NCBI GenBank assembly: GCA_016930485.1
Contig: JAFGGP010000011.1
Span: 51,196-115,195, forward strand
Origin: Candidatus Omnitrophota bacterium
GTDB taxonomy: Bacteria > Omnitrophota > Gorgyraeia > JAFGGP01
Reading direction: 5' to 3'
Length of the DNA: 64,000 nucleotides
The translations under genes were made by a program, and so were the position numbers. Numbering within the stretch: the stretch's first letter is position 1; the number at the start of each line of letters is the position of its first letter. The notes under the pieces were generated by a model, which worked only from the letters and a program-made list of their open reading frames with translations, was not told the DNA's origin and did no database searches. Of the stretch, positions 16,738 to 44,568 are shown in pieces.

Positions 16738-16954
16738 CACTAACCGGTCTAGCCGCTGTTGACCGGAGAGGGAAAAGGGAAGACGGGTGGCCGCCCGCGG
16801 GACCTCGACCATCGGGAATATCTCAGAGATACTATTATATTATGCTCAGGATGGAATTCGGGACTGTTTCGCACATCCCGTTTTTTAAGAGATACGAACA
16901 TTGCAATGTTTCTGATTCGTTATACTTCCAATGAGTGCATACAAGGAGGAAGAG

Positions 16955-20016: not shown

Positions 20017-22067
20017 AAACAGTTGCGATTATTCAGGCGAGAATGGGGTCTTCGAGATTGCCGAACAAGGTCCTTATGGAGATCGAAAAAAAGCCCATGC
20101 TGTGGCATATAGTACAACGGGTTTCTTCGGCAAAATTGCTGGACGATGTTGTTATCGCTACCTCGAGGAGCCAGAGAGACAGACCACTTGAAAAGTTTGC
20201 CAGAGAAAATAAGTTCAAGCTGTTTAAGGGGGCAGAGAATAACTGCTTAGATCGATATTACAAGGCTGCCAAGGCATCAAAGGCAGACGCGATTGTACGG
20301 ATAACCGGCGACTGTCCTTTGATCTGCCCCGAAGTCATTGACAAGGTATTATCGGAATATTCGAAAGGCAAGCATGACTATGTGGCAAACACGCTCTTTT
20401 ATACTTACCCAGATGGTTGCGATGTTGAGGTATTTTCATTCAAGGCCCTGGAGAAGGCCTGGAAGGAGTGCAAGGACAGGGTAGGCAAGGAACACGTGAC
20501 CCCTTATCTTAGAAATTCAAGCATGTTTAAGTTAAAAAATGTAGAGAGCGAAACTCCAGTTGATCCAAAGGACTATAAATGGTCGGTAGATAGGCTTGAA
20601 GATCTGAATCTCGTTAGAGAGGTGTATAAACATCTGTATACAAAACAGAGGGACTTTTCAATGAATGCAATTTTCGATCTTGTAAAAAAGCACCCCTATT
20701 TAAAAAAGATCAACTCGGAAACTATCGTGAACGAGGGTTATTATAAAAGCTTTTTGAAGGCCGAGAAAATAAGGCCAAAAAAAATAAGGATTGCACAATC
20801 CCTGGCATTAAAAAAAAGGGCTAGAAGATTAATACCTGGTTGTAGTCAGACATTCAGTAAGGCTCCCTCACAGTTCGTTCAGGGCATCGCTCCGGTATTT
20901 TTGGAAAAGGGCTCAGGCAGCCATGTGTGGGATGTAGATGGGAATGAATATATCGATTATTCAATGGCGCTGGGCCCGATTATTTTAGGATACAATTATC
21001 CGCTGGTTACTAGGGCGGTCAAGGTGATGTTAGAGAAAGGCGTTACTTTTACTCTGCCTCACCGTCTTGAAGGAGAGCTGGCCGAGATGCTCTGCGAGTT
21101 GATACCGTGCGCAGAGATGGTGCGGTACGGAAAAAACGGCTCTGATGTGACCTCTGCCGCGGTGCGGGTCGCGCGGGCATATACGTCTCGCGATAAAATC
21201 GCCTGCTGTGGTTATCACGGCTGGCAGGACTGGTATATTGCCACTACGACGAGAAATAAGGGAATCCCTCAGGCGGTCAAGGATCTGACGCTCACCTTTA
21301 ACTATAACGATATAGAGAGTCTAAAAAAACTGTTTACCGAAAACAAAAATCAGATTGCCTGTGTCATTATGGAGCCGGTCGGGGTTGTTGAGCCGAAGGA
21401 TAATTTTTTGGAGAAGGTAAAAGAGCTCACCCATAAAAACGGCGCACTCTTGATATTTGATGAGGTCGTTACAGGTTTCCGGTTTTCACTGGGTGGAGCT
21501 CAAACGCTTTTCGGCGTTGTTCCTGACCTTGCCTGTTTTGGCAAGGCGATGGGAAACGGTTTTCCGATATCAACTGTTGTAGGCAGAAGAAAAATCCTCA
21601 AATTATTTGAGGAGGTATTTTTCTCTTTTACCTTTGGAGGAGAGATTCTTTCCATCGCTGCCTCAATCGTGACGATTAAAGAGCTTAAGAAAAAGAATGT
21701 TATTCAATATTTATGGAAACAGGGCAGAAAACTTAAAGACGGATACAACGTCTTAGTTAAGGCCCACCAACTTGAACGATATACCGAGTGTACAGGCTTT
21801 TCGCCGAGGACTATCATTATGTTCAGAAATAGAGAGGGGGCGACAGATCTTTTACTCAAGAGCCTTTTTCAGCAGGAGTGCATAAAGCGAGGTATCTTAT
21901 TTACCGGAGGACAGAATATGTGTTTTAGTCACTCCGACAGTGATATCGAACGTACGTTACGGGTATATAATTCTGTATTAGAAATTGTTAAAAGAGCTAT
22001 TAAACAAGATAAAGTAAGAAAGCTTATCAAAGGTGAAATAGTTAAGCCAATATTTAGAAAAGCATAA
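20013..22067 (+). CDS. Bifunctional protein: N-terminal PseF/SpsF-like nonulosonate cytidylyltransferase fused to a class-III (GSA-aminomutase-like) PLP aminotransferase
   Basis: N-terminal domain: MKTVAIIQARMGSSRLPNKVL...ITGDCPL, the cytidylyltransferase (CTP_transf_3) pattern. C-terminal domain: VRYGKNGSDVTSAAVRVARAYT...FDEVVTGFRF...CFGKAMGNGFPIS, the class-III aminotransferase pattern. One continuous 684-aa ORF. Confidence 0.7.
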   Translation: MKTVAIIQARMGSSRLPNKVLMEIEKKPMLWHIVQRVSSAKLLDDVVIATSRSQRDRPLEKFARENKFKLFKGAENNCLDRYYKAAKASKADAIVRITGDCPLICPEVIDKVLSEYSKGKHDYVANTLFYTYPDGCDVEVFSFKALEKAWKECKDRVGKEHVTPYLRNSSMFKLKNVESETPVDPKDYKWSVDRLEDLNLVREVYKHLYTKQRDFSMNAIFDLVKKHPYLKKINSETIVNEGYYKSFLKAEKIRPKKIRIAQSLALKKRARRLIPGCSQTFSKAPSQFVQGIAPVFLEKGSGSHVWDVDGNEYIDYSMALGPIILGYNYPLVTRAVKVMLEKGVTFTLPHRLEGELAEMLCELIPCAEMVRYGKNGSDVTSAAVRVARAYTSRDKIACCGYHGWQDWYIATTTRNKGIPQAVKDLTLTFNYNDIESLKKLFTENKNQIACVIMEPVGVVEPKDNFLEKVKELTHKNGALLIFDEVVTGFRFSLGGAQTLFGVVPDLACFGKAMGNGFPISTVVGRRKILKLFEEVFFSFTFGGEILSIAASIVTIKELKKKNVIQYLWKQGRKLKDGYNVLVKAHQLERYTECTGFSPRTIIMFRNREGATDLLLKSLFQQECIKRGILFTGGQNMCFSHSDSDIERTLRVYNSVLEIVKRAIKQDKVRKLIKGEIVKPIFRKA

Positions 22068-22628
22068 ATGAACTTCTTGTCTGATGTAAAGAACCAGGAA
22101 AGCACCGCGCATATCAAGGGCGAAAGAATATACCTGCGCGAAATCAACGTTTCTGACGTGAATGAACGTTATCTCGGCTGGATGAATGATTCGGAGGTCA
22201 CGCGGCATTTGCTGTGTGATGCTGAAAAATGGACGTTAGGAAAACTTAAAAAGTATGTAAAAAAGATGAAAAAGGATCCCAACTCTATATTTTTTGGGAT
22301 ATTTCTTAATGCGAATGAAACACATATAGGGAATTTAAAAATCGGTTCGATAGACTACAGGAACAACTTTGCGGATATAGGCCTACTTATTGGGGAAAGA
22401 ACAATGTGGGGCCAAGGATATGCTTCCGAGGCGATAAGATTAGCGGTCGATTTTTCCTTTAATACACTAAATCTTCATAAGTTGACTGCTAGTGTGCTTT
22501 CAATCAATATAGGTTCTGTAAGGGTTTTTCAAAAGTGCGGCTTCTCTATCGAGGGCAAAAGAGAAAAACAGTATTTTTATGATGGGGATTATCAGGATAG
22601 TATTTTATTCGGAATTATCAAAAAATGA
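22068..22628 (+). CDS. GNAT N-acetyltransferase (candidate PseH)
   Basis: 186 aa. Acetyl-CoA binding motif QGYASEAIRLAVDFSF and a RimL/PseH-like size. Positioned between the cytidylyltransferase fusion and pseG. Confidence 0.55.
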   Translation: MNFLSDVKNQESTAHIKGERIYLREINVSDVNERYLGWMNDSEVTRHLLCDAEKWTLGKLKKYVKKMKKDPNSIFFGIFLNANETHIGNLKIGSIDYRNNFADIGLLIGERTMWGQGYASEAIRLAVDFSFNTLNLHKLTASVLSINIGSVRVFQKCGFSIEGKREKQYFYDGDYQDSILFGIIKK

Positions 22629-23671
22629 AAATTGCCATACTGACTGAAGGCGGCAAAAATATCGGTTTTGGTCATATCACGCGCTGTGTGGCCCTCCTAG
22701 AGGGGTTGAAAAAGGCCGCCGGCCGGAGAGTCGCGGGCATGTTCGTGATTAATAATGACAGGAGGGCCGTGCGCTTCCTCGAAAGTCAGGGGGTGAGGCT
22801 GACGGCATTCGACTGGATTGAAAAAAGAAAAAAGACGGCCGGCATCCTGAAAGGGGCGGACCTCGTTATCATAGATTCTTATTTTGCCCCCCCGTCATTC
22901 TATTCGTTTCTTTCGCATAAGACAAAAGACACACACCCCTTTGTGGTGGCAATCGATGATTATAAACGCATTGAGTACGACGCTGATCTGGTTATCAATC
23001 CCTCGATATATGGCGATGCCCTCTCGTATGCGCCGGGCAGGGAACACAGAGCCGGTCGCCGCCCTGAATATTTACTGGGAAGGAGTTATATTATCGTACG
23101 CAGGGAGTTCTGGAATGTCCCGAGAAAAAAAATCAATAAAAAGATCCGGAACGTGCTGGTTTCTTTCGGTGGGAAGGACTACGATCCGTTTACCGAGGCT
23201 GTTTTTACATTTTTGGAGACGGAGTTTCCTCATCTTGCCTATGACGTTGTAGCCCCGTCCCGGCCGGCCGGTCTTTCCCGGTCTCGATTCAGGTTTTATT
23301 CCAATGTCTCCGCCGCGAAGATGCGTTCTCTCATGTTGAAGGCGGACCTGTGTATTTCTGCCGGCGGGCAGACCCTGCACGAGCTGGCGCGGTGCGGCGT
23401 TCCGGCCGCGTCGATTTGCTTTGCCGATAATCAGGTGAAGAATCTTAAGGGGTGGGAGAAGATCGGTTTTGCAAAGTATGTTGGCTGGTATGACGACCGA
23501 AATGTTTTTGCCAGATTAGGGAGGGCAGTCTGCGCGCTCTCGCCTTATAAGGAGAGGCTGCTCCGGAGCAGGATAGGAAGACGGATCGCAGCCAAAGGGG
23601 TAGAGAGGATAAGCAGGGTTTTACTGACCAAGACAGCACTCAAACAAAAGGAGACGGCACATGAGTCGTGA
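22625..23671 (+). CDS. pseG: UDP-2,4-diacetamido-2,4,6-trideoxy-beta-L-altropyranose hydrolase, PseG (GT28-like fold)
   Basis: MKIAILTEGGKNIGFGHITRCVALLEGL N-terminus is the PseG hallmark. C-terminal half (ISAGGQTLHELARCGVPAAS) is MurG/GT28-like. Confidence 0.7.
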   Translation: MKIAILTEGGKNIGFGHITRCVALLEGLKKAAGRRVAGMFVINNDRRAVRFLESQGVRLTAFDWIEKRKKTAGILKGADLVIIDSYFAPPSFYSFLSHKTKDTHPFVVAIDDYKRIEYDADLVINPSIYGDALSYAPGREHRAGRRPEYLLGRSYIIVRREFWNVPRKKINKKIRNVLVSFGGKDYDPFTEAVFTFLETEFPHLAYDVVAPSRPAGLSRSRFRFYSNVSAAKMRSLMLKADLCISAGGQTLHELARCGVPAASICFADNQVKNLKGWEKIGFAKYVGWYDDRNVFARLGRAVCALSPYKERLLRSRIGRRIAAKGVERISRVLLTKTALKQKETAHES

Positions 23672-24704
23672 TGGGCATGTTACTTTCAACAAGTGCTTTA
23701 TCATTGCCGAGGCAGGCAGCAATCACAATGGTTCGCTCGACCAGGCAAAACGGCTGGTAGACGTTGCAAAGGATGCGGGTGCCGATGCCGTGAAGTTTCA
23801 GCTCTTTCGCGCCAAGACCCTTTACCCCAATAAACACATAAAAGTCAAGTATTTGAAGGACATGGGGATTCGCGAGGGGTTATTCGAGATTATCAGGAAA
23901 TTCGAAATGCCCTATACCTGGGTGAAGGAACTGTATAGTTACACAAAAAAGAACGATATTATGTTCATGACCACCCCTTTTGATGCCAAGGCGGTGGAGG
24001 TTCTCAATCCTTACGTGGATATATTTAAAATTGCTTCGTACGAATCGTTGTTTTTGGACCTGATCTGTGCGGTCAAACAAACCAAAAAACCTCTTTTTAT
24101 ATCTACGGGCGGATGCACCGAGGAAGAGGTTGATTTGCTGATGAAGGGGGCCCTGTACGATTATCTTGATAAGACGACACTCCTGCACTGTATCGCGAAG
24201 TATCCGGCTCCGCTTGATCAGCTGCAGCTGCAGGTGATACCGCACTTCTCCAGAAAGTATGGTGTAACCGTCGGATATTCCGACCATTCGGAGGACCCGA
24301 TCATTGCGCCGGTGTGCGCGGTTGCGCTGGGCGCAAAGGTAATCGAGAAACACTTTACGCTGAGTAAGCAATTGCCCGGCCCGGACCACGCCTTTGCGGT
24401 CGAACCGGATGAATTACAGGCGATGGTGAAGGCCGTGCGCATGACAGAGAAGACGGTTGCGGGAAGCGGTAAAAGAACCCTGCAGCCCTGCGAGAAAGAA
24501 CTCTATTACTATAAACGCTGCCTTTACAGCAGGAGAGATTTATCGAAAGGACACAGGATCAGAAAGAGCGATGTGACGGTACTGAGAAATGTAGGGCTTA
24601 AGTGCGATTATTTTAATCCTATAGAGATCGACGACCTTATCGGCAGGACATTAAAAGGCGATAAAAGGGCCAATGATATTATAACAAAGGAAGATGTGAC
24701 ATGA
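23661..24704 (+). CDS. pseI: Pseudaminic acid synthase PseI (NeuB family, C-terminal SAF domain)
   Basis: FIIAEAGSNHNGSLDQAKRLVDVAKDAGADAVKFQ NeuB TIM-barrel motif and a C-terminal SAF/antifreeze-like domain. Confidence 0.8.
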   Translation: MSRDGHVTFNKCFIIAEAGSNHNGSLDQAKRLVDVAKDAGADAVKFQLFRAKTLYPNKHIKVKYLKDMGIREGLFEIIRKFEMPYTWVKELYSYTKKNDIMFMTTPFDAKAVEVLNPYVDIFKIASYESLFLDLICAVKQTKKPLFISTGGCTEEEVDLLMKGALYDYLDKTTLLHCIAKYPAPLDQLQLQVIPHFSRKYGVTVGYSDHSEDPIIAPVCAVALGAKVIEKHFTLSKQLPGPDHAFAVEPDELQAMVKAVRMTEKTVAGSGKRTLQPCEKELYYYKRCLYSRRDLSKGHRIRKSDVTVLRNVGLKCDYFNPIEIDDLIGRTLKGDKRANDIITKEDVT

Positions 24705-25564
24705 GCACCGAATGCACAGGAAAACTCATCTTAGAAAGAGCCGACAGAAGGCTTATAGACTGCAAAAAGTGCGGGTATATGCATATATTTCCTATGTACA
24801 CGGAAGAGGAATTGGAACATTTTTATGAGAATGTGTACTCCGAGAGTACGCCGAGTTACATCTGGTATGAAAAATTTCACAATATCCAGCGGTGGAAGCC
24901 GCAGGGTACGGTTCTTGATATCGGATGCTGGGAAGGCGCCCAGCTTGAGATTTTTAAGGAACACGGCTGGAAGTGTACCGGTATAGAACTAAATAAAAAA
25001 GCAGCGGCCACGGCAACTACAAGGGGGCTGGAGGTTCACCAGCTTTCTATTCAAGAATTTTTTAAGAAGTTTCGCGGGGCCAGAAGATGGGACGTTATTA
25101 ATGTTGCCTATATTTTGGAACACATTCCAAAACCGGCTGATTTTCTGAAAAAAATAGGCGCCTTTTTGAAAAAGGGCGGTTTTATCATCGTAGAGGTCCC
25201 TAACGAATTCAGTCCTTTCCAGATAGCCTATCTGAAGGAACACAGCATGTCCCCATATTGGATAAAGTTACCCGACCACGTTAACTACTTTAATAAAAGA
25301 GGCCTCGAGAACCTCATGAAGTCGACAGGCTGGAAAAAGATTCACGGCCACACCTCCTTTCCGATGGAGATGTTTCTCTTGATGGGGGATAACTATCTGA
25401 AGGACAACAAACTCGGAAGGCGCAGCTTTCGCAAAGTTGTCGAGATGGAGAGGATCCTGAGGCTTTACAAGACGGGACTGGTCTCGCGGATGTATTCTGC
25501 GCTCTATCACTGCGGGATAGGCAGAAGCCTTGTCATCTACGCGCAAAAGAAAAAAATGAGATGA
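24701..25564 (+). CDS. Class-I SAM-dependent methyltransferase with an N-terminal C4 zinc-ribbon
   Basis: N-terminal ...CKKCGYMH plus an upstream Cys. SAM-binding motif I (VLDIGCWEGAQL) and motif II (WDVINVAYILEHI). Confidence 0.65.
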   Translation: MSTECTGKLILERADRRLIDCKKCGYMHIFPMYTEEELEHFYENVYSESTPSYIWYEKFHNIQRWKPQGTVLDIGCWEGAQLEIFKEHGWKCTGIELNKKAAATATTRGLEVHQLSIQEFFKKFRGARRWDVINVAYILEHIPKPADFLKKIGAFLKKGGFIIVEVPNEFSPFQIAYLKEHSMSPYWIKLPDHVNYFNKRGLENLMKSTGWKKIHGHTSFPMEMFLLMGDNYLKDNKLGRRSFRKVVEMERILRLYKTGLVSRMYSALYHCGIGRSLVIYAQKKKMR

Positions 25565-26316
25565 GAATAGCCGTATTTGCCGATGTACACGGCAACATGT
25601 ATGCCTTTGAGAAGATTCTGGAGGCCCTGAAAAAAGAGAGGGCCGATCTTCATATCTTCTGCGGCGATATCTGCGGGTACTATTACCAGCAGGACGAGGT
25701 CATTCAGGCGCTTCGCCAGATGCGTAATCTGGTAAGTGTCGTAGGGAATCACGATGAGATATTTCTCAGGATGCTGGAGGATACACGTCTTGAGGAAGAG
25801 TATACAAAGCAGTACGGCAGGTCATGCTCACTCTTTAAAGAAAGCGCCGCGTTAGAAAGTGTAACATTTTTAAAGGAGTTACCGAAAAAGTATATCATTG
25901 AAGAATATGCCGTAGCCGTTTTTCACGGCAGCCCCTGGGATTACTGTAATGAGTATGTGTATCCCGATGGCGCTCTAGACAGGTTTCGTGAGCTGCCTTA
26001 TCGGTTTGTTCTGCTTGGCCACACGCATTATCCGATGGACAGAATTGCCGGCGGTGTAAGGATTATTAACCCCGGCTCATGCGGCCAGCCGAGGGATATG
26101 CATATACCCAGTTACGCGGTCCTGGATATTGACAGCGGAGAAGTTATATCCAGGCGCGTTCCGTATAATACCGAGTATTTGAAAAATGACGTCAGAAGAT
26201 ACAAAGAAGACAATCTCTATTTAGAGGAGATTTTGACAAGAGGGGAAGGGTGTTATGAGCAGGCGAACTGTACTAGTCACCGGAATCGGCGGGGATATCG
26301 GCCAGAGCGTACTTAA
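25561..26316 (+). CDS. Calcineurin-like metallophosphoesterase (YfcE/MJ0936-like)
   Basis: MRIAVFADVHGN, GDICG, GNHDE and GHTHYP metal-ligand motifs. Confidence 0.6.
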   Translation: MRIAVFADVHGNMYAFEKILEALKKERADLHIFCGDICGYYYQQDEVIQALRQMRNLVSVVGNHDEIFLRMLEDTRLEEEYTKQYGRSCSLFKESAALESVTFLKELPKKYIIEEYAVAVFHGSPWDYCNEYVYPDGALDRFRELPYRFVLLGHTHYPMDRIAGGVRIINPGSCGQPRDMHIPSYAVLDIDSGEVISRRVPYNTEYLKNDVRRYKEDNLYLEEILTRGEGCYEQANCTSHRNRRGYRPERT

Positions 26317-27241
26317 GTGTCTCAGAGAGATTCCCTATGATTTCCTCCTGGCAGGCTGTGATATCGATGCCTTTGCGGGAGGTAGGACGCTGGTCGACGC
26401 CTTTTACCATGCCCCGAAGGCCTCCGAAGCGGAAGGATATCTCGCGTTTATCAAGACTATACTGGCAAAGGAAGAGGTAAAGTATATATTTCCCGTGACC
26501 GAGATCGAGATAGATTTTTTCGATAAGCACAGGGCGTATTTTGAAAAGGACGTTACCGTTTTTATAAACACAGGCGATATCAATGAGATTTTTTTCGACA
26601 AGTATGAGACGGCGAAGTTCCTCGGCAAACACAACATTGCCTATCCGGCAACGTATTTGCTCGGGGATTACAATGATGAGTTAAGCCTACCCGTTATTGT
26701 GAAATCACGCAGGGGCTGTGGCGGCAGAGGAATGCTGATAGTGTGCGACCGTGACGAGCTTATGTTTCTAAAGAGCAAGATGAAAGATGGCATCGTACAG
26801 GAATTGGTCGGGGCCGAGGACGATGAGTATACGGTGAGCATCTTTTCCGGGGGAGGAAAAACGTATTCTATCGCCTTTCGGAGGACCCTTGGCTATGACG
26901 GACTCAGCAAGGTTGCCCGGCTGACGACAGATAACAGGATAACAGCGCTCGTTGACAGTATCGTGGAGGCGACGTCGCTCGAAGGGGTCCTGAACGTTCA
27001 GTGCAGAAAAAGGAATGCTGAGTACGTGCCCTTCGAAATCAATCCCCGGCTCTCAAGCACCGTCTACACCCGCCACTATTTTGGTTTTCAGGATGTGAAG
27101 TGGTGGATGGATACTGCCGAAGGAAAAGAAGTTGTCTATGTGCCGAAGTTCAAAGATGGCGTCGCGGTGAGGACTATCAGTGAGGTCTTTTTTGATCTTG
27201 AGTCCGCAGACAGCCCGGACAATATACGCACATTGCGATAA
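26255..27241 (+). CDS. ATP-grasp family ligase
   Basis: Pre-ATP-grasp Rossmann N-domain, then VIVKSRRGCGGRGMLIV and E..Y/N.. ATP-grasp motifs. About 330 aa, like PylC/RimK-type amide ligases. Confidence 0.55.
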   Translation: MSRRTVLVTGIGGDIGQSVLKCLREIPYDFLLAGCDIDAFAGGRTLVDAFYHAPKASEAEGYLAFIKTILAKEEVKYIFPVTEIEIDFFDKHRAYFEKDVTVFINTGDINEIFFDKYETAKFLGKHNIAYPATYLLGDYNDELSLPVIVKSRRGCGGRGMLIVCDRDELMFLKSKMKDGIVQELVGAEDDEYTVSIFSGGGKTYSIAFRRTLGYDGLSKVARLTTDNRITALVDSIVEATSLEGVLNVQCRKRNAEYVPFEINPRLSSTVYTRHYFGFQDVKWWMDTAEGKEVVYVPKFKDGVAVRTISEVFFDLESADSPDNIRTLR

Positions 27242-27250
27242 AAGGAACAA

Positions 27251-27955
27251 ATGAGCCGCCCGGATAAGAAAAGATATATTATTGCCGCCAGCAAATCCTG
27301 GAATATAGAGGCAGCCAGATCCTTTATTGCCGATAGCCCCGACTTACAGATAAAGCTTATAACAGACAAAAAGGCGCTTACCTACGGGGAGATAAAGAAC
27401 TTCAATCCCCGCTACGTCTTTTTCCTGCATTGGTCGTGGCTGATACCTCAGGCGATTCACCGGAACTACGACTGCGTCGTTTTTCATATGACTGATTTAC
27501 CTTTTGGCAGGGGCGGTAGCCCTCTCCAGAATTTGATAGAGAGAGGGATATATAAAACGAAGATTGCGGCCATAAAGGCGGTCCGGGAGCTGGACGCGGG
27601 AGATATCCTGCTTAAGAAGAGCCTGACTCTGGAGGGGTCTGCTGACGAGATATTCAGGCGCGCGACAAAAATTATCTTTACATCCATGATTCCCCGAATC
27701 ATCAAAGACGAGCCGGTTCCTGTTCCTCAGAAGGGGAAGGTGGTTCGTTTTAAAAGGCGTCTTCCCGAGCAGGGCACTATAGCCCGGTTGAGCAGTCTAA
27801 CAAAGGTCTATGATTACATAAGGATGCTGGACGCAGAGGGGTATCCGCCCGCCTTTATGGAGGTGTCCGGATTAAGGTTGGAATTTTTTGATGCACAGAA
27901 GAAAAAGGACTATATTACGGCAAAGGTCAGGCTGAGGATAAAAGATGAAACATAA
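27251..27955 (+). CDS. Formyltransferase-family protein (Fmt/PurN fold)
   Basis: HMTDLPFGRGGSPLQ matches the H-x-S/T-x-LP-x-x-RG-x-x-P-x-Q formyltransferase catalytic loop. Confidence 0.6.
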   Translation: MSRPDKKRYIIAASKSWNIEAARSFIADSPDLQIKLITDKKALTYGEIKNFNPRYVFFLHWSWLIPQAIHRNYDCVVFHMTDLPFGRGGSPLQNLIERGIYKTKIAAIKAVRELDAGDILLKKSLTLEGSADEIFRRATKIIFTSMIPRIIKDEPVPVPQKGKVVRFKRRLPEQGTIARLSSLTKVYDYIRMLDAEGYPPAFMEVSGLRLEFFDAQKKKDYITAKVRLRIKDET

Positions 27956-28625
27956 CATTTTGATTGTAGCCGCTCATCCGGACGATGAGATTCTCGGGTG
28001 CGGGGGTACGGTTGCGCGCTTGATTAAAGAAGGGCATGCAGCGTATACGTTACTGTTGGGCGAGGGGGTAACCTCGCGAGATGAGGAGCGCGACCCGAAA
28101 AAACGGGGAAAAGAGATTAACAGCCTGAGAAACCAGGCCCAGCAGGCTAACGCTGCCCTCGGGGTAAAAGAAGTTTTTATACATAGCTTTCCGGATAACA
28201 GATTTGATACGGTGCCGCTTTTGGATATTGTCAAGGTTATAGAAAAGACAAAAGAGAAAGTAAAACCTGCCCTTGTCTTTACTCATTATGCGAATGACCT
28301 CAATATCGATCACCGCATTACCTGTGCCGCAGTTCTCACCGCTACCAGACCCGTGTTGGATGAGACAGTAAAAGAAATCTACTCGTTTGAGGTACCTTCT
28401 TCTACAGAGTGGAACTATCCCTTGAGTTTTTCCCCGAATGTATATTTTGATATCTCACAGACGATAGATGTGAAGTTGCAGGCAATAAAGCAGTACGTTT
28501 CAGAGATCAAAGAGCCACCCCACCCCAGGTCTCAGGAAGGCGTAGAGCTCAATGCAAGGATGTGGGGGATGAAGGTGGGACTTGGGTATGCCGAGGCCTT
28601 TACATGCGTGAGGCGCCTGGCGTAG
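27945..28625 (+). CDS. PIG-L/LmbE-family N-deacetylase
   Basis: ILIVAAHPDDEILGCGGTVARL zinc-binding signature of LmbE/PIG-L deacetylases. Confidence 0.75.
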   Translation: MKHNILIVAAHPDDEILGCGGTVARLIKEGHAAYTLLLGEGVTSRDEERDPKKRGKEINSLRNQAQQANAALGVKEVFIHSFPDNRFDTVPLLDIVKVIEKTKEKVKPALVFTHYANDLNIDHRITCAAVLTATRPVLDETVKEIYSFEVPSSTEWNYPLSFSPNVYFDISQTIDVKLQAIKQYVSEIKEPPHPRSQEGVELNARMWGMKVGLGYAEAFTCVRRLA

Positions 28626-28657
28626 GCGTGACGGAGCGGTCAAAAAAGAGGTATTAG

Positions 28658-29758
28658 ATGTCTTTAGAGTGCATCGTTTGCAGTTCGACACAGTGCACGT
28701 TATTGATTAAACAAGGCGGGTACGACATTTTTAGGTGCCGCCGCTGCCGCCTGATTTTCGCCCATCCCCTCCCGGATGCCGGCCAGCTGGGCGCGTTTTA
28801 TCAGAATTTTGGCCATAATCGCGAAGAGGCAGACTGTCCTGATGAACAGAGACTCATTGTTGAAGGGGCGATGAGAGAAAAAATTCGTCTTGCCAGGGAA
28901 ATCGCCGTCTCGCCGATAAAGACCTTTCTCGATATAGGTGCGGGCTGCGGCTATTATCTGCACGGGGCGAAAAAGGCGGGGTTGGACGTGACAGGCGTGG
29001 AACTGGACGCTAGTGCCGTTATGTTTGCCCGGGAGCATCTGGGGCTCGAAATAAAAGAGGGAGGTTTTCTGGAGGCAGCTCTCGAGGACAATTATTTTGA
29101 CTTTGTCCACCTTCGTAACTCTATCGAGCATTTTACGGACCCAGGGGAGTGCCTTTTGAAGATAAACCATATCATGAAAAAGGGCGGGGTATTAATACTG
29201 GAGACACCGAATTCCCAAAGCCCCGAGCACCTGGTGCGCCGGTTATTTCTGGATGCCGTAAAAACCCTGAGACGGAATATGCCCGGCCGGGCCGCGTGGT
29301 GGTATTGGAAGACGGCACTTATGCGGCCCTGGGCATATGTTGATCCCCCGCGACATCTCTATGGCTTCAATAAGCACAACATCGATCTTCTTCTGGCGAC
29401 TTATGGATTCAAAAGTTACGACATTATGGCCAAGCCGCTGGGCGACCCTGTTTATCATCCTGTTTCCCCCGGCGCCCAGAGGCAACGCGATGCTGAGATG
29501 CGCGCTGCCGAGGCGCGTCTTTTTTCAAGCTCCAGGCTGCGGTATTGTCTCTATGTCTTTGGATGGAAACCTGTTGCTTTTATCTTACAAAAGATAATCG
29601 CACGGGCCGGAATGGGGAATAATCTGGTTGTGTATGCTGTAAAAGAGAAGACGGTTGCACGCAAGTGTGCGGCGCCGACCGAAGAGCTTATTACGGGACG
29701 CCGCCAGGATATGTCTACATCAGAAACAAAGAGCGCACTCATACAATGTACAGCCTAA
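28658..29758 (+). CDS. Class-I SAM-dependent methyltransferase with an N-terminal C4 zinc-ribbon (paralog of 24701..25564)
   Basis: CIVCSS...CRRCRL zinc-ribbon. SAM motif FLDIGAGCGYYL and motif II FDFVHLRNSIEHF. Same architecture as the gene at 24701. Confidence 0.65.
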   Translation: MSLECIVCSSTQCTLLIKQGGYDIFRCRRCRLIFAHPLPDAGQLGAFYQNFGHNREEADCPDEQRLIVEGAMREKIRLAREIAVSPIKTFLDIGAGCGYYLHGAKKAGLDVTGVELDASAVMFAREHLGLEIKEGGFLEAALEDNYFDFVHLRNSIEHFTDPGECLLKINHIMKKGGVLILETPNSQSPEHLVRRLFLDAVKTLRRNMPGRAAWWYWKTALMRPWAYVDPPRHLYGFNKHNIDLLLATYGFKSYDIMAKPLGDPVYHPVSPGAQRQRDAEMRAAEARLFSSSRLRYCLYVFGWKPVAFILQKIIARAGMGNNLVVYAVKEKTVARKCAAPTEELITGRRQDMSTSETKSALIQCTA

Positions 29759-31155
29759 TTATACCCACATCGGCGCCTCAGAAAAGACATTCTCGGCGAT
29801 ATAGTATGCTGTGGAAGAAAATGCGGTCTTTTTTGCGCTATACGATCAAACCCTATGTGTATATCCCCATTACCTTTACCAAGCGGGTTCTTTTGGGCAA
29901 AGACCCCTATTGGCGGCAGTACTTCTGGAGTCGGTGGGGGTATGTGCCGAGAACGGTGGCGCGGGAACTTCAAAAGGCGCAACCCTTTTTTATAGCAGCG
30001 GATAGTTTCGGAGAGGTCAACGAGCTTTTTTCTTTCTGTAAGAGGCTTAAAGAAAGTTTTCCAGAGACACCGATTCTGGTCTCGACGAATACCGAGAACG
30101 GCTTTTCTCTGGCAAAAAGGATAGAGGCTGTTGATTTTGTTATCGATGCGCCGTGGGATCTTCCCGGTCCGACAAGGAGAGTACTCAGGGCCTGTTCTCC
30201 CAGGGCCTTGATTGTGATAGAACAGATCAGATTTCCGGTGCTTGTGCGTGAGGCAAAGGAGCTGAACATACCGACACTTCTCTGCAGTGGTTTTTTATCG
30301 GAAGACTGGGAAAATGTTCTTTCAGCCTTCAGGGCTGTAACACTAAAGGCCTATACATATTTGGATGCTATTGGCGCTAAAGGCATATCTGAGGTCGATA
30401 CCTTTTTAAGGATAGGAGTTGATTCAAAAAAGATATCGGTAACCGGGGATTTAAAATGCGATCCCGGTCATATCAGGATTTCGTCGGACGAGCGTGATGA
30501 TCTGCTGAAATCGGTAGCCTGTCATGATAGCCGTCCCGTATTTCTGGCAGCAAGCATACACAAAGAGGAGGCCTCCGCGATTATAGAGGGGTACCGGTTG
30601 GCAAAAAGGCGCGTACCGTTGCTTCGGTTATTGTGCGTCCCGCGCTATCCGGGGGAATTGGATTTTTTTGAAAGACTACTAGCAAAAAACGGCCTGGCTT
30701 TTGTGAAAAAATCCCTCATCACGAAAGACACTCTATCCAACGACCACTCGATTATATTAGTGGATACTATGGGTGAGCTGGCAAAATTATACGCCGTTGC
30801 CTCCCTTGCCTTTATCGGCGGCAGTTTTATGAAGATAGAAGGTCCCGGAAGAGGGGGGCACAATATAATGGAACCGGTTATCCAGAGCTGCCCCTTTTTA
30901 TTCGGACCTTATTTGTATCATCGCAGCGACATTCTTCGTCGTCTTGCGTCTGCCTGCCCGCATATAGTGGTGAGGACAGAAGAGGATCTTGCCTCAGGTA
31001 TTCAGAAGTTGCTGGAGGATCAGCATCACCTTACGTTACTCAGGGGCGTTATGAGTGAGATTGTGAACGAGAATGCATCCACGGTAGAAGTAAACATTGA
31101 TTTCGTAAAGAGATATACGGCTGTGTCAGGGGCACCCGTTACAGCTGTAACCTAG
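29746..31155 (+). CDS. WaaA/KdtA-family (GT30) ulosonic-acid transferase homolog
   Basis: Two conserved blocks align with E. coli WaaA: VLVSTNTENGFSLAKR and ILVDTMGELAKLYAVASLAFIGGSFMKIEGPGRGGHNIMEP...FGPYLYHRSDI. The start is ambiguous (29746 or 29806). Confidence 0.7.
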   Translation: MYSLIIPTSAPQKRHSRRYSMLWKKMRSFLRYTIKPYVYIPITFTKRVLLGKDPYWRQYFWSRWGYVPRTVARELQKAQPFFIAADSFGEVNELFSFCKRLKESFPETPILVSTNTENGFSLAKRIEAVDFVIDAPWDLPGPTRRVLRACSPRALIVIEQIRFPVLVREAKELNIPTLLCSGFLSEDWENVLSAFRAVTLKAYTYLDAIGAKGISEVDTFLRIGVDSKKISVTGDLKCDPGHIRISSDERDDLLKSVACHDSRPVFLAASIHKEEASAIIEGYRLAKRRVPLLRLLCVPRYPGELDFFERLLAKNGLAFVKKSLITKDTLSNDHSIILVDTMGELAKLYAVASLAFIGGSFMKIEGPGRGGHNIMEPVIQSCPFLFGPYLYHRSDILRRLASACPHIVVRTEEDLASGIQKLLEDQHHLTLLRGVMSEIVNENASTVEVNIDFVKRYTAVSGAPVTAVT

Positions 31156-31171
31156 ATAAAGGGGAGACGCG

Positions 31172-32761
31172 TTGGCAATCACCGATCTTAAGGAAAACGT
31201 CGAGGAAAAGGACCAGGCCGCGAAGAGAGCTGACGGACAATACAGTACCAGCCAGGTGCAAAGGCGCATAGTAAAAGATACCAGTCTCTTTTCCTTTGCC
31301 AGCATCTTTTCGCTTGTCATGTCTTTTTTCAGGGGAATGGTCATTCCTAATCTGCTTGGGCCGGTATATTACGGGATGCTGAACGGCCTGTCCGTCATAT
31401 CAAACCATACTCAGTATTCTCATATGGGCATTTCCAACGGAATGTCCTTTTGGATTCCCCATTATCGCGGCAAAGGTGATGAGCGCGCGATTGAAGAAGT
31501 GCGGAACGCAACCTTTACCGTTGCGGTGATTACCGGGGCGTTTGCCTCTGCCCTTATTTTTGTCATTTTGGGTATTGTGTGGAAACGCCTGGATATACCG
31601 GTAAGGGCGGGGTTGGGGGTATTCGCCTGTTTGGTTTTTATACAAAACCTGCGTATTTTTATAAACCTTGCCTTGCGGAGCGATCACCGCTTCAAACTGA
31701 TCAGTCTGATTACCATGCTGGAGTCCTTTTTTGCCACCGGTCTGGTCATCTCGCTTGCCTGGTTTTTTAAAATCTACGGTGTCTTTGCGGCAATGCTTCT
31801 CTCAAGCGGCTATTTTTTGCTTTTTTCCTTCGTTAAGGCAAAGTACCTGTTACGGTGGTACATGAAGAAAAAGGTTTTGCTGGATTTGCTATCGGTAGGG
31901 TTTCCTTTATTTATAATAGGATTATGCAATGTATTTTTTCTGGGCATCGACAGAATTCTTATTATCAAGGTGCTGGGTTTAAAGAATCTGGGGTTTTACG
32001 CCCTTGGCCTTACCCTGGCGACCTATCTCAAGACTATTCCGATAGCCTTTTCAAAGATAATAGCCCCGAGGGTGTATGAGGAGTCAAGCAGAGAGGAAGG
32101 AGACACGGTGCAGTACCTGGTAGACCCTGTCATATGTCTTAGCCTGCTTGCCGTTACCATGATCGGCTTTTTATATTTGATAGTGCCATGGTTTTTTTCC
32201 GAGATTTTTCCGGCCTATATTTCAGGCATACGCAGCGGACAGATTCTTTTGATCTCCGCCTATTTCCCTATCGTTGCCCTTATACCCAGTCAGATTATTA
32301 TTGGGCAGAGGAGGATGGCCCAGGTATTGGTGTTTCAGTTACTCGCTATCGGGGTGGCCTTTTTCTTCGGCCTTCTGGCCTTCAAGAGGGGGATGGGCAT
32401 CGAAGGTATGGCAGCCGCCATGCTCTTAGCCCATGCCCTATATGCTGTTCTTGCGTTATATGGCGCGTCACGCCTGACTATAAAAAACCGATGTAACATG
32501 CTCACTTTTTTTGCCTCTTTATCAGGTATTTTCTGCTACGGGATTCTGACGGCATATGGATTAGAGGGTTGTGGCTGGTTTTTCGGCTGCCGTGAAGGGT
32601 GCGCCCTTGTCCTCAAGACCCTTGTTTTTGTCGCAGGTCTTATTCCTGTGTATTATGTCGTGTCGCGTCGGTCATGGATGTTTAAAGAAATTGTTACATT
32701 AAGCGGGCTCGGCCTTTCCCGCATTAAAAATCGTATGAATGGAACAACCCTAGAGGTGTAA
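31172..32761 (+). CDS. Wzx-like polysaccharide flippase (MOP superfamily, Polysacc_synt type)
   Basis: TTG start 5 nt after an AAAGGGGAG RBS. About 12-14 predicted TM helices across 529 aa with no soluble domain. Confidence 0.55.
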   Translation: MAITDLKENVEEKDQAAKRADGQYSTSQVQRRIVKDTSLFSFASIFSLVMSFFRGMVIPNLLGPVYYGMLNGLSVISNHTQYSHMGISNGMSFWIPHYRGKGDERAIEEVRNATFTVAVITGAFASALIFVILGIVWKRLDIPVRAGLGVFACLVFIQNLRIFINLALRSDHRFKLISLITMLESFFATGLVISLAWFFKIYGVFAAMLLSSGYFLLFSFVKAKYLLRWYMKKKVLLDLLSVGFPLFIIGLCNVFFLGIDRILIIKVLGLKNLGFYALGLTLATYLKTIPIAFSKIIAPRVYEESSREEGDTVQYLVDPVICLSLLAVTMIGFLYLIVPWFFSEIFPAYISGIRSGQILLISAYFPIVALIPSQIIIGQRRMAQVLVFQLLAIGVAFFFGLLAFKRGMGIEGMAAAMLLAHALYAVLALYGASRLTIKNRCNMLTFFASLSGIFCYGILTAYGLEGCGWFFGCREGCALVLKTLVFVAGLIPVYYVVSRRSWMFKEIVTLSGLGLSRIKNRMNGTTLEV

Positions 32762-32768
32762 TGGCGCA

Positions 32769-34664
32769 ATGGAACACCCTGCCCCTCATTCTTATAAGAG
32801 CAATAAGTCAGTCATGATGGTTTTTGCCGCGCCGGTCGAAGAGAGACGTTACGAACAGCTGGTTAAGAAGATGACGTCCCGCTTTGAAAGGGTATCCGTT
32901 ATTTTCTTAAACGGTGAACCCCGGCAGATTCTATTCTCGAACGGATGTCCGAGGCATCTTCAAACAAAAGACATTCCTTACGAGACTGCCTTCCGGAAGG
33001 CGAAGTCCTTGTCAAAGGAGATCATCGAAAACATAACCGCGTTCCCGGAGAAGATGTTTTATTTTGGTTCGGTTTCGCTGGAGCCGGCATTTGATAAAAG
33101 CCTTCTCAAACGGCTTATGCAGTATGTGGGGGGATTTCTCAGGCTTGAAGATGCATTAAAAGACGAGCACCCCGACAGTATCTTTATTTACACAGAAGAT
33201 CTTTTCGAACGTGCACTGTTCTCTTCGCTAAAGAACGTTTTTCCGCAGGGTGCCTTTCACTTTGTTTCCGGTTTTTCATTGCGCCGGGCCGCATTTTTTT
33301 CTTTGTACATCAAAGGCTGGATGAGATTGTTTCGAGACCTTGCCTATGAACCGAGACCGCCTTTTAGACATGCAGGCCGTGCTGACGAGGCGAATGCATC
33401 ACCGTCCGCTGTTTTCCTGGACGATCACCCGCTTTTATTGGAAAGAATGGCGCCCCTTTTTAAGCGTTTTGTCGAGCAGAACTGGAAGGTAACCGTGGTC
33501 GGCTTTGGCAAAACGCGTAAAAGCGGCTGGGAACAGGCGGGTCTTGCGAGCCGCGTTTTTGGGAATCACCCGATAGGATTCCGGCTTCTTTTGGAGCGCT
33601 GGCGCTATATACTACGTTTCAGGAAGGTATATAGAAAGAGGGGCTTTACTCCTCACAGTGAGAAATGGAATGAGATGAGGCGGTATATTGCCTGTGAGGA
33701 AACCTATCGTATTATCTATACCTATCAAAAGATCAACCAGGCGTTGAGCGACCTTCAGCCAGAGGCCATTCTTTTTACTAATCGGCAGGTATTCGGTACG
33801 TTAATCGGTCTTGTGGCCAGGGCATCCGGGATTCCCGCGGTATGGATCCAGGAGGCCGGCCACTTCCTCCAGACGGCGATGTCAGTTAACAATGAGCATC
33901 TTATAGCGGATTACTTTCTTGTGTGGGGAGACGTCAGTCGGGAGACGCTGGTAGAGGGCGGTATCGACAGGGATAAGATCTTTATAACAGGGGCCCTTAT
34001 GTTTGAGAACCTCTTAAAAGAAGCGCGGGATATCACTGTCGGCCAGCGGTGTATCTTTGAGGGCGACAAGGAGCGGAAGGAACCCGTATGCCGCGTACTG
34101 CTCATCTCCGTTTTTCCCAGCGACGGGGCTGTGACCAATCCCCAGCCGTCAAGCAGACTGAAAGAGGATATTTTGAAGGCGGTAGGCAATGTTATGAAGG
34201 ATATCCCATCGGCTGTGCTGGTGATCAAGCCGCACCCCTTTGATGAAAACGGGTCGTCTTTTGATGAAAAGATCATCGGAGCTATACTTCCCCGTTCACA
34301 GTATGAGATAGCATCCTCTGCGAGCGATCTTGTGACACTGGTTAAGGAGTCAGACGCCATGTTTCTTATGCACGGGTCGACTGCTGGTCTGTATGCGGTG
34401 CTCTTCGGCAAGCCCATTGTGATGATGTCAGAAAAAAGCAACCTGGCATTTAATTTATTCGTAGAAGAAAAGATGTCCGTTTACGCCGCTACACCCGCGG
34501 ACATCAAAGACGCGCTTCATTCGGCCCTTTTTGACAAGGAGACACAGGACCGTTTGTTTAATAAAAGAAACGAATTCCTGGATCGGTACCTCAGCGTGAA
34601 TAATGAGGGTTTGCCTTCGGAAAATATCAGTACTTTTTTGAAGGAGCGCGTGTTAAGGACATGA
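32769..34664 (+). CDS. KpsS/KpsC/LpsZ-like (Capsule_synth family) putative glycosyltransferase with a long N-terminal extension
   Basis: C-terminal block VLVIKPHPFDE...DAMFLMHGSTAGLYAVLFGKPIVMM resembles the HP...S-T-x-G...G-K-P motif set of KpsS/LpsZ capsule transferases. The N-terminal ~350 aa are unassigned. Weak call. Confidence 0.4.
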   Translation: MEHPAPHSYKSNKSVMMVFAAPVEERRYEQLVKKMTSRFERVSVIFLNGEPRQILFSNGCPRHLQTKDIPYETAFRKAKSLSKEIIENITAFPEKMFYFGSVSLEPAFDKSLLKRLMQYVGGFLRLEDALKDEHPDSIFIYTEDLFERALFSSLKNVFPQGAFHFVSGFSLRRAAFFSLYIKGWMRLFRDLAYEPRPPFRHAGRADEANASPSAVFLDDHPLLLERMAPLFKRFVEQNWKVTVVGFGKTRKSGWEQAGLASRVFGNHPIGFRLLLERWRYILRFRKVYRKRGFTPHSEKWNEMRRYIACEETYRIIYTYQKINQALSDLQPEAILFTNRQVFGTLIGLVARASGIPAVWIQEAGHFLQTAMSVNNEHLIADYFLVWGDVSRETLVEGGIDRDKIFITGALMFENLLKEARDITVGQRCIFEGDKERKEPVCRVLLISVFPSDGAVTNPQPSSRLKEDILKAVGNVMKDIPSAVLVIKPHPFDENGSSFDEKIIGAILPRSQYEIASSASDLVTLVKESDAMFLMHGSTAGLYAVLFGKPIVMMSEKSNLAFNLFVEEKMSVYAATPADIKDALHSALFDKETQDRLFNKRNEFLDRYLSVNNEGLPSENISTFLKERVLRT

Positions 34665-39857: not shown

Positions 39858-39868
39858 GGAAAAATAGC

Positions 39869-42231: not shown

Positions 42232-42252
42232 AAAGGGACAGAGAAACTCGAT

Positions 42253-44556: not shown

Positions 44557-44568
44557 AAGGGGACAGCG

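Follow-up and report, generated by a model that had tools for sequence, protein, structure and literature searches.

Within a 64,000-nucleotide stretch of DNA from a Candidatus Omnitrophota bacterium (hereafter, the window), six co-directional genes on the + strand, at 24701-29758, directly follow a gene for a NeuB-family synthase. Such synthases belong to the biosynthesis of nonulosonic acids (NulOs), sugars that decorate flagella, capsules, S-layers, and lipopolysaccharide, where they influence phage attachment, surface charge, and recognition by the immune system. N-acyl variants of these sugars, including formyl, glyceroyl, aminoacyl, and free-amine forms, are known chemically, and the six genes probably serve to give a sialic-acid-like surface sugar other groups in place of its usual N-acetyls. 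We estimate an approximately even chance that the region consists of two independently distributed NulO-tailoring cassettes and a lineage-specific methyltransferase gene, set in a pseudaminic acid (Pse)-type operon for an exported surface polysaccharide.

Gene identities were assigned from Pfam and NCBIfam profile matches, read against curated cutoffs. The first gene, MT1 (24701-25564), encodes a class I S-adenosylmethionine (SAM) methyltransferase of 287 amino acids (aa) with an N-terminal three-cysteine knuckle (Methyltransf_23, 6.6e-22). It is followed by MPE (25561-26316), a 251-aa calcineurin-like metallophosphoesterase of the YfcE family (Metallophos_2, 1.5e-25; TIGR00040, 72.7 bits against a cutoff of 56.25), and by a 328-aa ATP-grasp carboxylate-amine ligase (26255-27241) of the PRK12767 or "carbamoyl-phosphate-synthase-like" type (ATP-grasp_3, 2.3e-11; NF009402, 216.9 bits against a cutoff of 218). 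Next come a short, 234-aa formyltransferase-like protein, FTL (27251-27955), of the PDB 1ZGH family (Formyl_trans_C_2, 2.1e-21), and a 226-aa zinc N-deacetylase of the LmbE/PIG-L family (27945-28625; PIG-L, 1.9e-25). The last gene is MT2 (28658-29758), which encodes a 366-aa class I SAM methyltransferase with a C4 zinc ribbon (Methyltransf_23, 7.8e-18), and the two methyltransferase genes flank the other four. An earlier interpretation made from the DNA letters alone (the sequence-only reading) had placed the same six families at exactly these coordinates, and the profile matches confirm it.

The genes are tightly packed: neighbors overlap by 4 to 62 nt (11 nt for FTL and LmbE) or are separated by gaps of at most 32 nt. 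At the upstream end, the synthase gene (23661-24704) shares 4 nt with the start of MT1, and at the downstream end, the MT2 stop overlaps the start of a GT30-like gene. A promoter and terminator scan of 15.8-35.8 kb detected no clear operon boundary inside the module; promoter-like matches fell within one standard deviation of shuffled controls, and terminator-like matches lay about two standard deviations above them.

The first of the two cassettes is the FTL-LmbE pair. FTL has relatives in more than 7,800 protein clusters at 52 to 64% identity, spanning Omnitrophota, Planctomycetota, Elusimicrobiota, Thermotogota, Clostridia, phyla of the candidate phyla radiation, and archaea, and a scan of one genome per species found a relative encoded in at least 581 genomes. 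Neighborhoods were counted in the best 80 of the genome loci found through FTL. LmbE is directly downstream of FTL in 75 of the 80, across many phyla, and the same loci contain genes for the NeuB family (73), PseB (46), PseC (45), and PseG (39 to 42), usually in the order NeuB-[GNAT]-FTL-LmbE-[PseG] or PseG-FTL-LmbE-[GNAT]-NeuB. The proposal that the deacetylase and the formyltransferase-like gene act as a NulO-linked unit is supported by these counts. LmbE itself is a clear member of the LmbE/PIG-L deacetylases (PF02585, 90.3 bits against a cutoff of 28.2), with BshB1/BshB2 and diacetylchitobiose deacetylases as its nearest relatives. Its zinc motifs AHPDDE and D-x-DH, kept at 95% or more across 71 orthologues, are intact in the window.

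The second cassette comprises MT1, MPE, and the ATP-grasp ligase. For the ligase, 624 homologues were found, including proteins from Clostridium botulinum, C. tetani, Jeotgalibacillus, and Aquibacillus, and the gene is present in at least 502 metagenome loci. Neighborhoods were read in 80 of these metagenome loci, 16 of which are well flanked (at least 4 kb on each side). MPE lies no more than two open reading frames (ORFs) upstream of the ligase gene in 43 of the 50 loci that could be judged, and it is often preceded by a gene for a short-chain dehydrogenase/reductase (SDR) or an NAD-dependent epimerase (SDR or our family c54). An MT1-like gene is nearby in 28 of 82 loci, and a GNAT-family acetyltransferase gene directly follows the ligase in eight. 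Among the 16 well-flanked loci, NeuB occurs in 15, MPE in 13, MT1 in 10, GNAT in 8, a class-III aminotransferase in 8, LmbE in 3, and FTL in 1. Because NeuB is nearly constant here and LmbE and FTL are rare, the ATP-grasp cassette is NulO linked and independent of the FTL-LmbE pair.

Two loci in cultured genera illustrate this. A C. botulinum locus (L082) combines flagellin, Maf, a cytidylyltransferase, MPE, ATP-grasp, a methyltransferase, NeuB, a PseB-like protein, and a GNAT; its orthologues are 45% (MPE), 45% (ATP-grasp), and 32% (MT1; E = 2e-50, over the full length) identical to the proteins in the window. A flagellar locus of Jeotgalibacillus (L083) encodes flagellin, Maf, PseB, PseC, a cytidylyltransferase, PseG, MPE, ATP-grasp, and NeuB, and no GNAT, LmbE, or FTL gene was found in it. 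No LmbE gene lies within 10 kb of the cassette in either locus, and L082 also has no FTL. In several apparently complete loci, the ATP-grasp cassette would be the sole candidate for the PseH step, and it most likely adds another kind of acyl group independently of FTL-LmbE.

The domain content and fold of the ligase are those of ATP-grasp enzymes, as evidenced by matches above cutoff to PF02655 (ATP-grasp_3) and PF15632 (ATPgrasp_Ter), a PylC-like_N match, and an AlphaFold2 model with a mean confidence (pLDDT) of 91.4. Foldseek searches with the model returned 2PN1, biotin carboxylase, PurK, PurT, L-amino-acid ligase, and PylC at E values of 1e-20 to 1e-16. The nearest solved relative, 2PN1 from Exiguobacterium sibiricum ("carbamoylphosphate synthase large subunit, split gene in MJ"), ranks first by Foldseek and matches in sequence at E = 3e-10. 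We rejected an assignment of the ligase's substrate from structure, given that the search returns the whole biotin carboxylase/PurK/PurT/L-amino-acid-ligase/PylC clade; these neighbors use bicarbonate, formate, or amino acids, and the fold therefore does not discriminate the acid. The phosphoesterase belongs to the YfcE family by motif as well as by profile: its metal-binding motifs DxHGN, GD, GNH, HG, GHxH, and NPGSxGQPR are kept across 48 orthologues.

In about a dozen of the metagenome loci, the ATP-grasp cassette is followed by large ORFs of approximately 600 to 715 aa, including ORFs of 630 to 690 aa such as L087:12172-14064 and L106:1595-3526; there are none in the window. Of four that were scanned, one hit Asn_synthase, another gave a weak, below-cutoff hit to GATase_7, and two had no match. 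The two hits would be compatible with carboxylate amidation in the same glycans.

The sequence-only reading had treated all six genes as one tailoring module. Co-occurrence across the 80 genome and 80 metagenome loci does not sustain this idea and shows separate cassettes: ATP-grasp travels with MPE and MT1, mostly without LmbE or FTL, and conversely, ATP-grasp and MPE occur in only 3 to 4 of the 80 FTL loci, and an MT1-like gene occurs in 7. MPE and ATP-grasp are found without the other cassette in Jeotgalibacillus and C. botulinum, FTL and LmbE are found alone in Hathewaya and C. sporogenes, and Flavobacterium aquariorum has both. Gene content, catalytic motifs (with the FTL substitution described below), cassette structure, and linkage to NeuB can be read directly from these loci. 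Of the further claim that an amine is deacetylated and then re-acylated, the tie of an FTL-LmbE unit to NulO synthesis stands, and the coupling of ATP-grasp to LmbE does not hold generally; because most ATP-grasp loci have no LmbE, the ligase does not generally need an amine freed by that enzyme.

A coupled scheme nevertheless deserves consideration, in which LmbE frees N5 and FTL and ATP-grasp compete or alternate there to give N-formyl or N-aminoacyl products, with the methyltransferases methylating the aminoacyl group as in Leg5GluNMe7Ac, a legionaminic acid (Leg) derivative. This derivative is carried by the flagellin of the C. botulinum Langeland strain group, whose island FGI-II comprises LegC, LegB, an acyltransferase, a deacetylase, LegF, "CarB," LegI, a methyltransferase, and LegG. 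The Langeland locus sets a precedent for such a sequence, in which an amine is deacetylated, then aminoacylated and methylated: the FGI-II of C. botulinum F Langeland, from the group with N-methyl-glutamyl Leg, lists an "N-acetylglucosamine deacetylase," "CarB," and a methyltransferase, a resemblance in gene names, and the JGI label for homologues of the window's ATP-grasp is "carbamoyl-phosphate synthase large subunit," as for CarB. Furthermore, the window's order MPE-ATPgrasp-FTL(-LmbE) recurs in four other loci (L065 from Flavobacterium aquariorum and the metagenome contigs L134, L153, and L154), and LmbE adjoins MPE-ATPgrasp without FTL in L097 and L104. However, 13 of the 16 well-flanked ATP-grasp loci, together with L082 and L083, have no LmbE, and the ligase is all but missing from the FTL-LmbE loci. 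The coupled scheme is possible for some loci but is not a general rule, and we consider it unlikely for the window.

We therefore return to two separate cassettes and to the step that each performs. Most FTL loci carry a separate candidate for acylation of the 4-amino group: a PseH-like GNAT, a paralogue that we call FTL2, or a canonical short formyltransferase (family c18). Among 46 well-covered FTL loci, 28 have GNAT only, six have FTL2 or c18 only, one has both, and 11 have neither (Fisher p = 0.007), so GNAT and the FTL2/c18 formyltransferases are mutually exclusive across FTL loci. This exclusion is as expected if they are alternatives for one step, at N4 (later N7), and if FTL-LmbE performs a different, constant step. 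Because most loci thus carry their own acyltransferase for the 4-amino group, whether GNAT or a substitute formyltransferase, FTL-LmbE most likely swaps the inherited N5-acetyl group for formyl.

FTL2 proteins are 212 to 235 aa long, share 25% identity with FTL, and have the motif NLVVHESxLPQGKGW(S/A)P. They occur in L003, L004, L013, L023, L028, L032, and L052 (e.g., L004:11336-12010), where they stand in the gene order at the place of the PseH-like GNAT; a GNAT is missing from six of these seven loci. N-acylation of the 4-amino group by FTL2 probably substitutes for acetylation.

All characterised sugar N-formyltransferases, among them ArnA, WbkC, and VioF, are known to act on NDP-aminosugar amines that are made by a DegT-type aminotransferase, a precedent that favors a second alternative. 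FTL would then be the N4 (future N7) formyltransferase, and LmbE would leave N5 either free or with a different acyl substituent, so that a zwitterionic sugar of the Pse5N7Fo type results; in a variant, the group that LmbE removes would be a transient formyl, by analogy with ArnD acting after ArnA. The 11 loci with neither candidate agree with this scheme, and NulOs of Candidatus Kuenenia stuttgartiensis that bear one formyl group, one free amine, and no acetyl group (discussed below) fit it equally well. However, FTL would be redundant at N4 in the 28 loci, including the window, that also encode a PseH-like GNAT and in the six that have a second formyltransferase instead, and formylation, deformylation, and then acetylation is an unparsimonious route wherever PseH is present. 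We regard this alternative as quite improbable, and exchange at N5 remains our preferred assignment for FTL-LmbE.

Whether FTL is a formyltransferase at all is a separate matter. The protein matches PDB 1ZGH (a structural-genomics entry named "methionyl-tRNA formyltransferase," from Clostridium thermocellum) at E = 1.1e-73, and 1ZGH is a direct member of the family, at about 60% identity as read from the alignment; FTL also aligns with FMT, ArnA, and GDP-perosamine formyltransferase. The deposited names of 1ZGH and 2PN1 are generic homology labels that are almost certainly wrong for the NulO context. Within the family, the motif FHMTDLPFGRGGSPLQNLI is invariant, and among 20 members, so are the catalytic residues His79 and Asp115 and the LP..RG loop. 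In contrast, the Asn of the canonical Asn-x-His ... Asp triad is lost: it aligns with V77 of FTL, a position occupied by V, I, or A across the 20 members, and the alignment holds against both 4IQF and the window's own canonical formyltransferase (39060-39857). The N-terminal domain scores 16.7 bits for Formyl_trans_N (PF00551), under the cutoff of 26.1, and only the C-terminal PF21553 passes, at 75.7 bits. The sequence-only description of FTL as a formyltransferase must be amended accordingly, as FTL is not a canonical one.

Compared with ArnA, WbkC, and the dTDP-Qui4N formyltransferases, FTL shares the formyltransferase fold, the C-terminal OB-like domain, the His and Asp residues, and the LP..RG loop, but it differs from sugar N-formyltransferases in the Asn-to-Val/Ile/Ala replacement and in a shortened N-terminal subdomain (234 aa in all). 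As with ArnA and ArnD, it is paired with an amidohydrolase, but its partner belongs to the LmbE family and not to the CE4 family of ArnD. FTL2 also has no such Asn, yet it stands in for the acetyltransferase in six loci; this is indirect evidence that suggests that Asn-less members of the family are active acyltransferases.

These observations also bear on a third alternative, in which FTL performs some other acyl transfer, hydrolysis, or substrate presentation with LmbE, and ATP-grasp adds a small acid (formate or acetate, with ATP) or joins a phosphorylated amine to the NulO carboxylate as an amide, with MPE taking off the phosphate afterward, as in the Cj1438/Cj1435 capsule system of Campylobacter jejuni. 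We think this distinctly improbable: the lost Asn and subthreshold N-terminal domain, the canonical short formyltransferase (c18, N-x-H-x-SLLP) beside FTL in seven loci, PurT and PurK among the closest ATP-grasp folds, the class-III aminotransferase in 8 of 16 ATP-grasp loci, and the SDR or c54 gene next to MPE all favor it, but His79, Asp115, the xxLPxxRG loop, and the whole 1ZGH fold are retained and extremely conserved, the Asn-less FTL2 replaces an acetyltransferase, and the partner of the aminotransferase, by fusion or adjacency, is the cytidylyltransferase and not ATP-grasp, often in loci that have no ATP-grasp.

The two methyltransferases had been described as paralogous zinc-ribbon proteins. 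They are indeed paralogous, albeit distantly (25% identity, E = 1e-18), but the full ribbon is present only in MT2, which has CxxC...CxxC at C5, C8, C27, and C30 together with a canonical DIGAGCG motif. MT1 has three cysteines (C5, C21, and C24); this pattern and a GCWEG variant of SAM motif I are kept in its closest subclade, and alignment with the C. botulinum orthologue does not begin until MT1 residue 18, the orthologue having no CxxC there. Among 5.8 billion clusters, MT2 has only one homologue above 30% identity, and we rejected its placement, as a near-orphan, among conserved NulO tailoring genes; it is a lineage-specific member of the same methyltransferase superfamily. An identification of MT1 as the Pse-associated methylase TIGR03587 (Pse_Me-ase) was likewise rejected (17.4 bits; cutoff, 112.05), and the matches listed for that profile do not include MT2. 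In other FTL loci, the TIGR03587-type role is filled by a different protein family, c13.

The surrounding DNA supplies the pathway into which these enzymes would fit. From about 4.9 kb to 64 kb, the window is a single surface-polysaccharide region on the + strand, beginning with an LptD-like gene, UDP-sugar dehydrogenases, Wzi, a large Wza, and a Wzz-like gene. The NulO core follows at 16931..24704 (+), where profile matches identify PseB, PseC, an aldo/keto reductase, a cytidylyltransferase-aminotransferase fusion, a PseH-like GNAT, a PseG-like hydrolase, and the NeuB/PseI-like synthase. PseB (TIGR03589, 499.6 bits; cutoff, 407.75) and PseC (TIGR03588, 497.5 bits; cutoff, 423.5) exceed their equivalog cutoffs, which makes a Pse-type label for the pathway reasonable. 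The late enzymes match the expected families but fall under their cutoffs: PseH scores 47.2 against 93.1, PseG 135.6 against 153.55, and PseI 262.5 against 340.25, and the synthase scores higher for NeuB_NnaB (288.1; cutoff, 399.65) than for PseI. The enzyme that the sequence-only reading termed "Pse synthase" belongs to the NeuB family but lies under both the PseI and the NeuB cutoffs. Downstream, at 29746..34664 (+), are the presumptive users of the product: a glycosyltransferase resembling GT30 Kdo transferases (Glycos_transf_N, 9.7e-28), a Wzx-type flippase (Polysacc_synt_3), and a 631-aa putative NulO transferase (Capsule_synth/Epimerase_2). A radical-SAM/SPASM protein, glycosyltransferases, and an Arn-like set lie further on. 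The combination of Wzi, Wza, and Wzx with Pse genes indicates that the product is a Pse-type NulO for an exported polysaccharide and not for flagellin.

From this gene content, we infer the substrates, the order of the steps, the nitrogen that each enzyme modifies, and formyl as the transferred group. PseB and PseC, whose family membership is firm, would produce UDP-4-amino-4,6-dideoxy-β-L-AltNAc. Its 4-amine (later N7) would be acylated by the PseH-like GNAT, by the ATP-grasp ligase at the expense of ATP and a carboxylic acid, or by both; the ligase would convert the acid to an acyl phosphate and join it to the NulO amine. MPE probably strips a phosphate borne by the acyl donor or the acyl group, after which MT1 would methylate the added group. 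LmbE would remove the acetyl group that the UDP-sugar retains from UDP-GlcNAc on its C2 nitrogen (N5 of the NulO), and FTL would re-acylate the freed amine, most probably with formyl. MT2 may place an extra methyl group somewhere on the sugar or glycan. PseG, the synthase, and the cytidylyltransferase domain would complete the CMP-sugar, which the GT30-like or the 631-aa protein would then transfer to the glycan. The six enzymes probably act on nucleotide-sugar intermediates within the pathway, and not only after the synthase step.

A broader proposal, which we advance tentatively and think unlikely, is that FTL-LmbE and MT1-MPE-ATPgrasp are two enzyme systems behind a large share of the N-acyl variants in bacterial and archaeal NulOs that have so far lacked an explanation. 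An Asn-less FTL family, obligately paired with LmbE, would rewrite the N5-acetyl group, while an ATP-dependent, acetyl-CoA-independent route would replace PseH with an acyl group from a phosphorylated acid (such as glyceroyl from 3-phosphoglycerate or seryl from phosphoserine) that MPE dephosphorylates and MT1 methylates. With both together, the Omnitrophota locus would yield a Pse derivative without any N-acetyl group.

Several points weigh against the interpretation that we prefer. FTL, with no catalytic Asn and an N-terminal domain under the Pfam cutoff, may not transfer formyl at all, and in the 11 of 46 well-covered loci that show no separate N4-acyltransferase, it could acylate the 4-amino group. 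The role given to the phosphoesterase is conjecture, and fold comparison cannot tell which acid the ligase uses. The deacetylase and formyltransferase of Kuenenia, described below, are likened to LmbE and FTL by gene description. Finally, three candidate N-acylating activities (GNAT, FTL, and ATP-grasp) face only two amines in the Pse skeleton, and therefore either the assignments include a mistake or more than one product is made. The surplus would be accounted for by heterogeneous products, by a GNAT that acts on the added acyl group, or by a further amine created by the fused aminotransferase and the reductase; a literature search found no paper on a "triamino" NulO of the last kind.

Relative to the CMP-Pse5Ac7Ac pathway of Campylobacter and Helicobacter (PseB, C, H, G, I, and F), the window has PseB and PseC above cutoffs and PseH-, PseG-, PseI-, and PseF-like genes in one operon, but it adds the six tailoring genes, the aldo/keto reductase, and the aminotransferase-cytidylyltransferase fusion, and its late enzymes are divergent. 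A close chemical parallel, and indirect evidence for formyl transfer, comes from Ca. Kuenenia stuttgartiensis, whose CMP-NulOs carry one free amine, one N-formyl group, and +14-Da methyl variants (bioRxiv 10.64898/2026.04.20.719630). The same SugarBase preprint describes "a deacetylase and a formyltransferase" between legB/legF/legC and neuB/legF/legG (bioRxiv 10.64898/2026.04.20.719630). An earlier glycoproteomic paper on Kuenenia reported NulO fragments of 261, 275, and 289, which by our own arithmetic correspond to a diamino-NulO plus formyl plus 0, 1, or 2 methyl groups. With its deacetylase and formyltransferase amid NulO genes, the Kuenenia cluster matches the LmbE, FTL, and methyltransferase content of the window by gene description and not by sequence. 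However, it is Leg type, with genes assigned by proximity only, whereas the window is Pse type and also has the GNAT and the ATP-grasp cassette.

Other systems share parts of the arrangement. The C. botulinum islands resemble the window in combining a NulO core with a deacetylase, a CarB-like ATP-grasp protein, and a methyltransferase, but their target is flagellin, via Maf, and not a Wzx/Wza polysaccharide, and the Langeland list has no phosphoesterase or FTL. L082, with its orthologues of MPE, ATP-grasp, and MT1, belongs to a different C. botulinum genome. In Shewanella oneidensis, the flagellin modification operon sfmABCDE modifies a mono-acetylated diamino-NulO that bears a further methylated acyl moiety. 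This operon also has a NeuB-family gene, a SAM methyltransferase, and an ATP-grasp ligase, but SfmE (412 aa) belongs to another subfamily, ATP-grasp_4, and there is no phosphoesterase, LmbE, or FTL. We did not use the 5-N-formyl-Leg of Halorubrum PV6 as an FTL example, given that the 953-bp reverse transcription-PCR product of its predicted formyltransferase gene suggests a protein larger than FTL and no deacetylase is mentioned. For the N-glyceroyl group, the Tannerella papers state that the enzymes that install it are not known.

A NulO biosynthetic cluster with N-acyl tailoring is a known kind of system, and the combination of enzymes in the window predicts an undescribed Pse derivative. 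The genes are not a one-off, since FTL is encoded in at least 581 species-level genomes and the ligase in at least 502 metagenome loci, and both families are mis-annotated, as "methionyl-tRNA formyltransferase" and "carbamoyl-phosphate synthase," respectively. Organisms with one cassette or both allow clean functional tests, and assigned activities would improve genome-based glycan prediction and supply enzymes for modified Pse and Leg donors.

Additional observations concern neighboring genes and related loci. FkbH enzymes convert bisphosphoglycerate to glyceryl thioesters, and a 548-aa FkbH-like protein of the HAD family is encoded in four FTL-LmbE NulO loci (L025:6867-8917 from Clostridium sporogenes, L019, L035, and L036); its Pfam matches, to NIF, Hydrolase, and FkbH_N, are weak and under cutoff. 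A small protein of approximately 135 aa adjoins it in three of the four (not L036), and the FkbH-like protein may provide a route to N-glyceroyl NulOs.

The 631-aa protein (32769-34664, +) has weak matches to a BFO_1060-family glycosyltransferase, TIGR04396, and Capsule_synth, and is a candidate transferase for the modified NulO; we take the BFO_1060 family to be the Tannerella transferases of Pse and Leg derivatives. No homologue of it was found among the other fetched loci. In the core, the segment at 19123-22067 (+) encodes Aldo_ket_red and then a CTP_transf_3-Aminotran_3 fusion, in which a CMP-NulO-type cytidylyltransferase is joined to a class-III aminotransferase resembling glutamate-1-semialdehyde aminomutase. 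Elsewhere, the reductase, cytidylyltransferase, and aminotransferase are separate adjacent genes, with or without the other cassettes. This trio was counted in 12 to 13 of the 80 loci found through FTL and in 8 of the 16 well-flanked ATP-grasp loci, and it looks like a third recurrent NulO cassette.

The Arn-like set at 38068-46026 (+) includes an SDR/decarboxylase-like protein with similarity to the ArnA C terminus, a canonical short formyltransferase (N-x-H-x-SLLP), a GT2 glycosyltransferase, two PMT_2 (ArnT-like) membrane transferases, an ArnD-like polysaccharide deacetylase, and two methyltransferases. These genes suggest that an aminoarabinose-type, lipid-linked sugar modification is encoded within the same polysaccharide region. 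A 723-aa single ORF at 58515-60686 (+) joins a GT4 glycosyltransferase to a radical-SAM/SPASM domain, and for the separate radical-SAM/SPASM gene at 34669-35727, seven other NulO loci contain homologues. Just upstream of the polysaccharide region, at 773-3477 (+), two adjacent genes encode GGDEF diguanylate cyclases, one with a GAF domain, and this pair may place the polysaccharide locus under the control of c-di-GMP.

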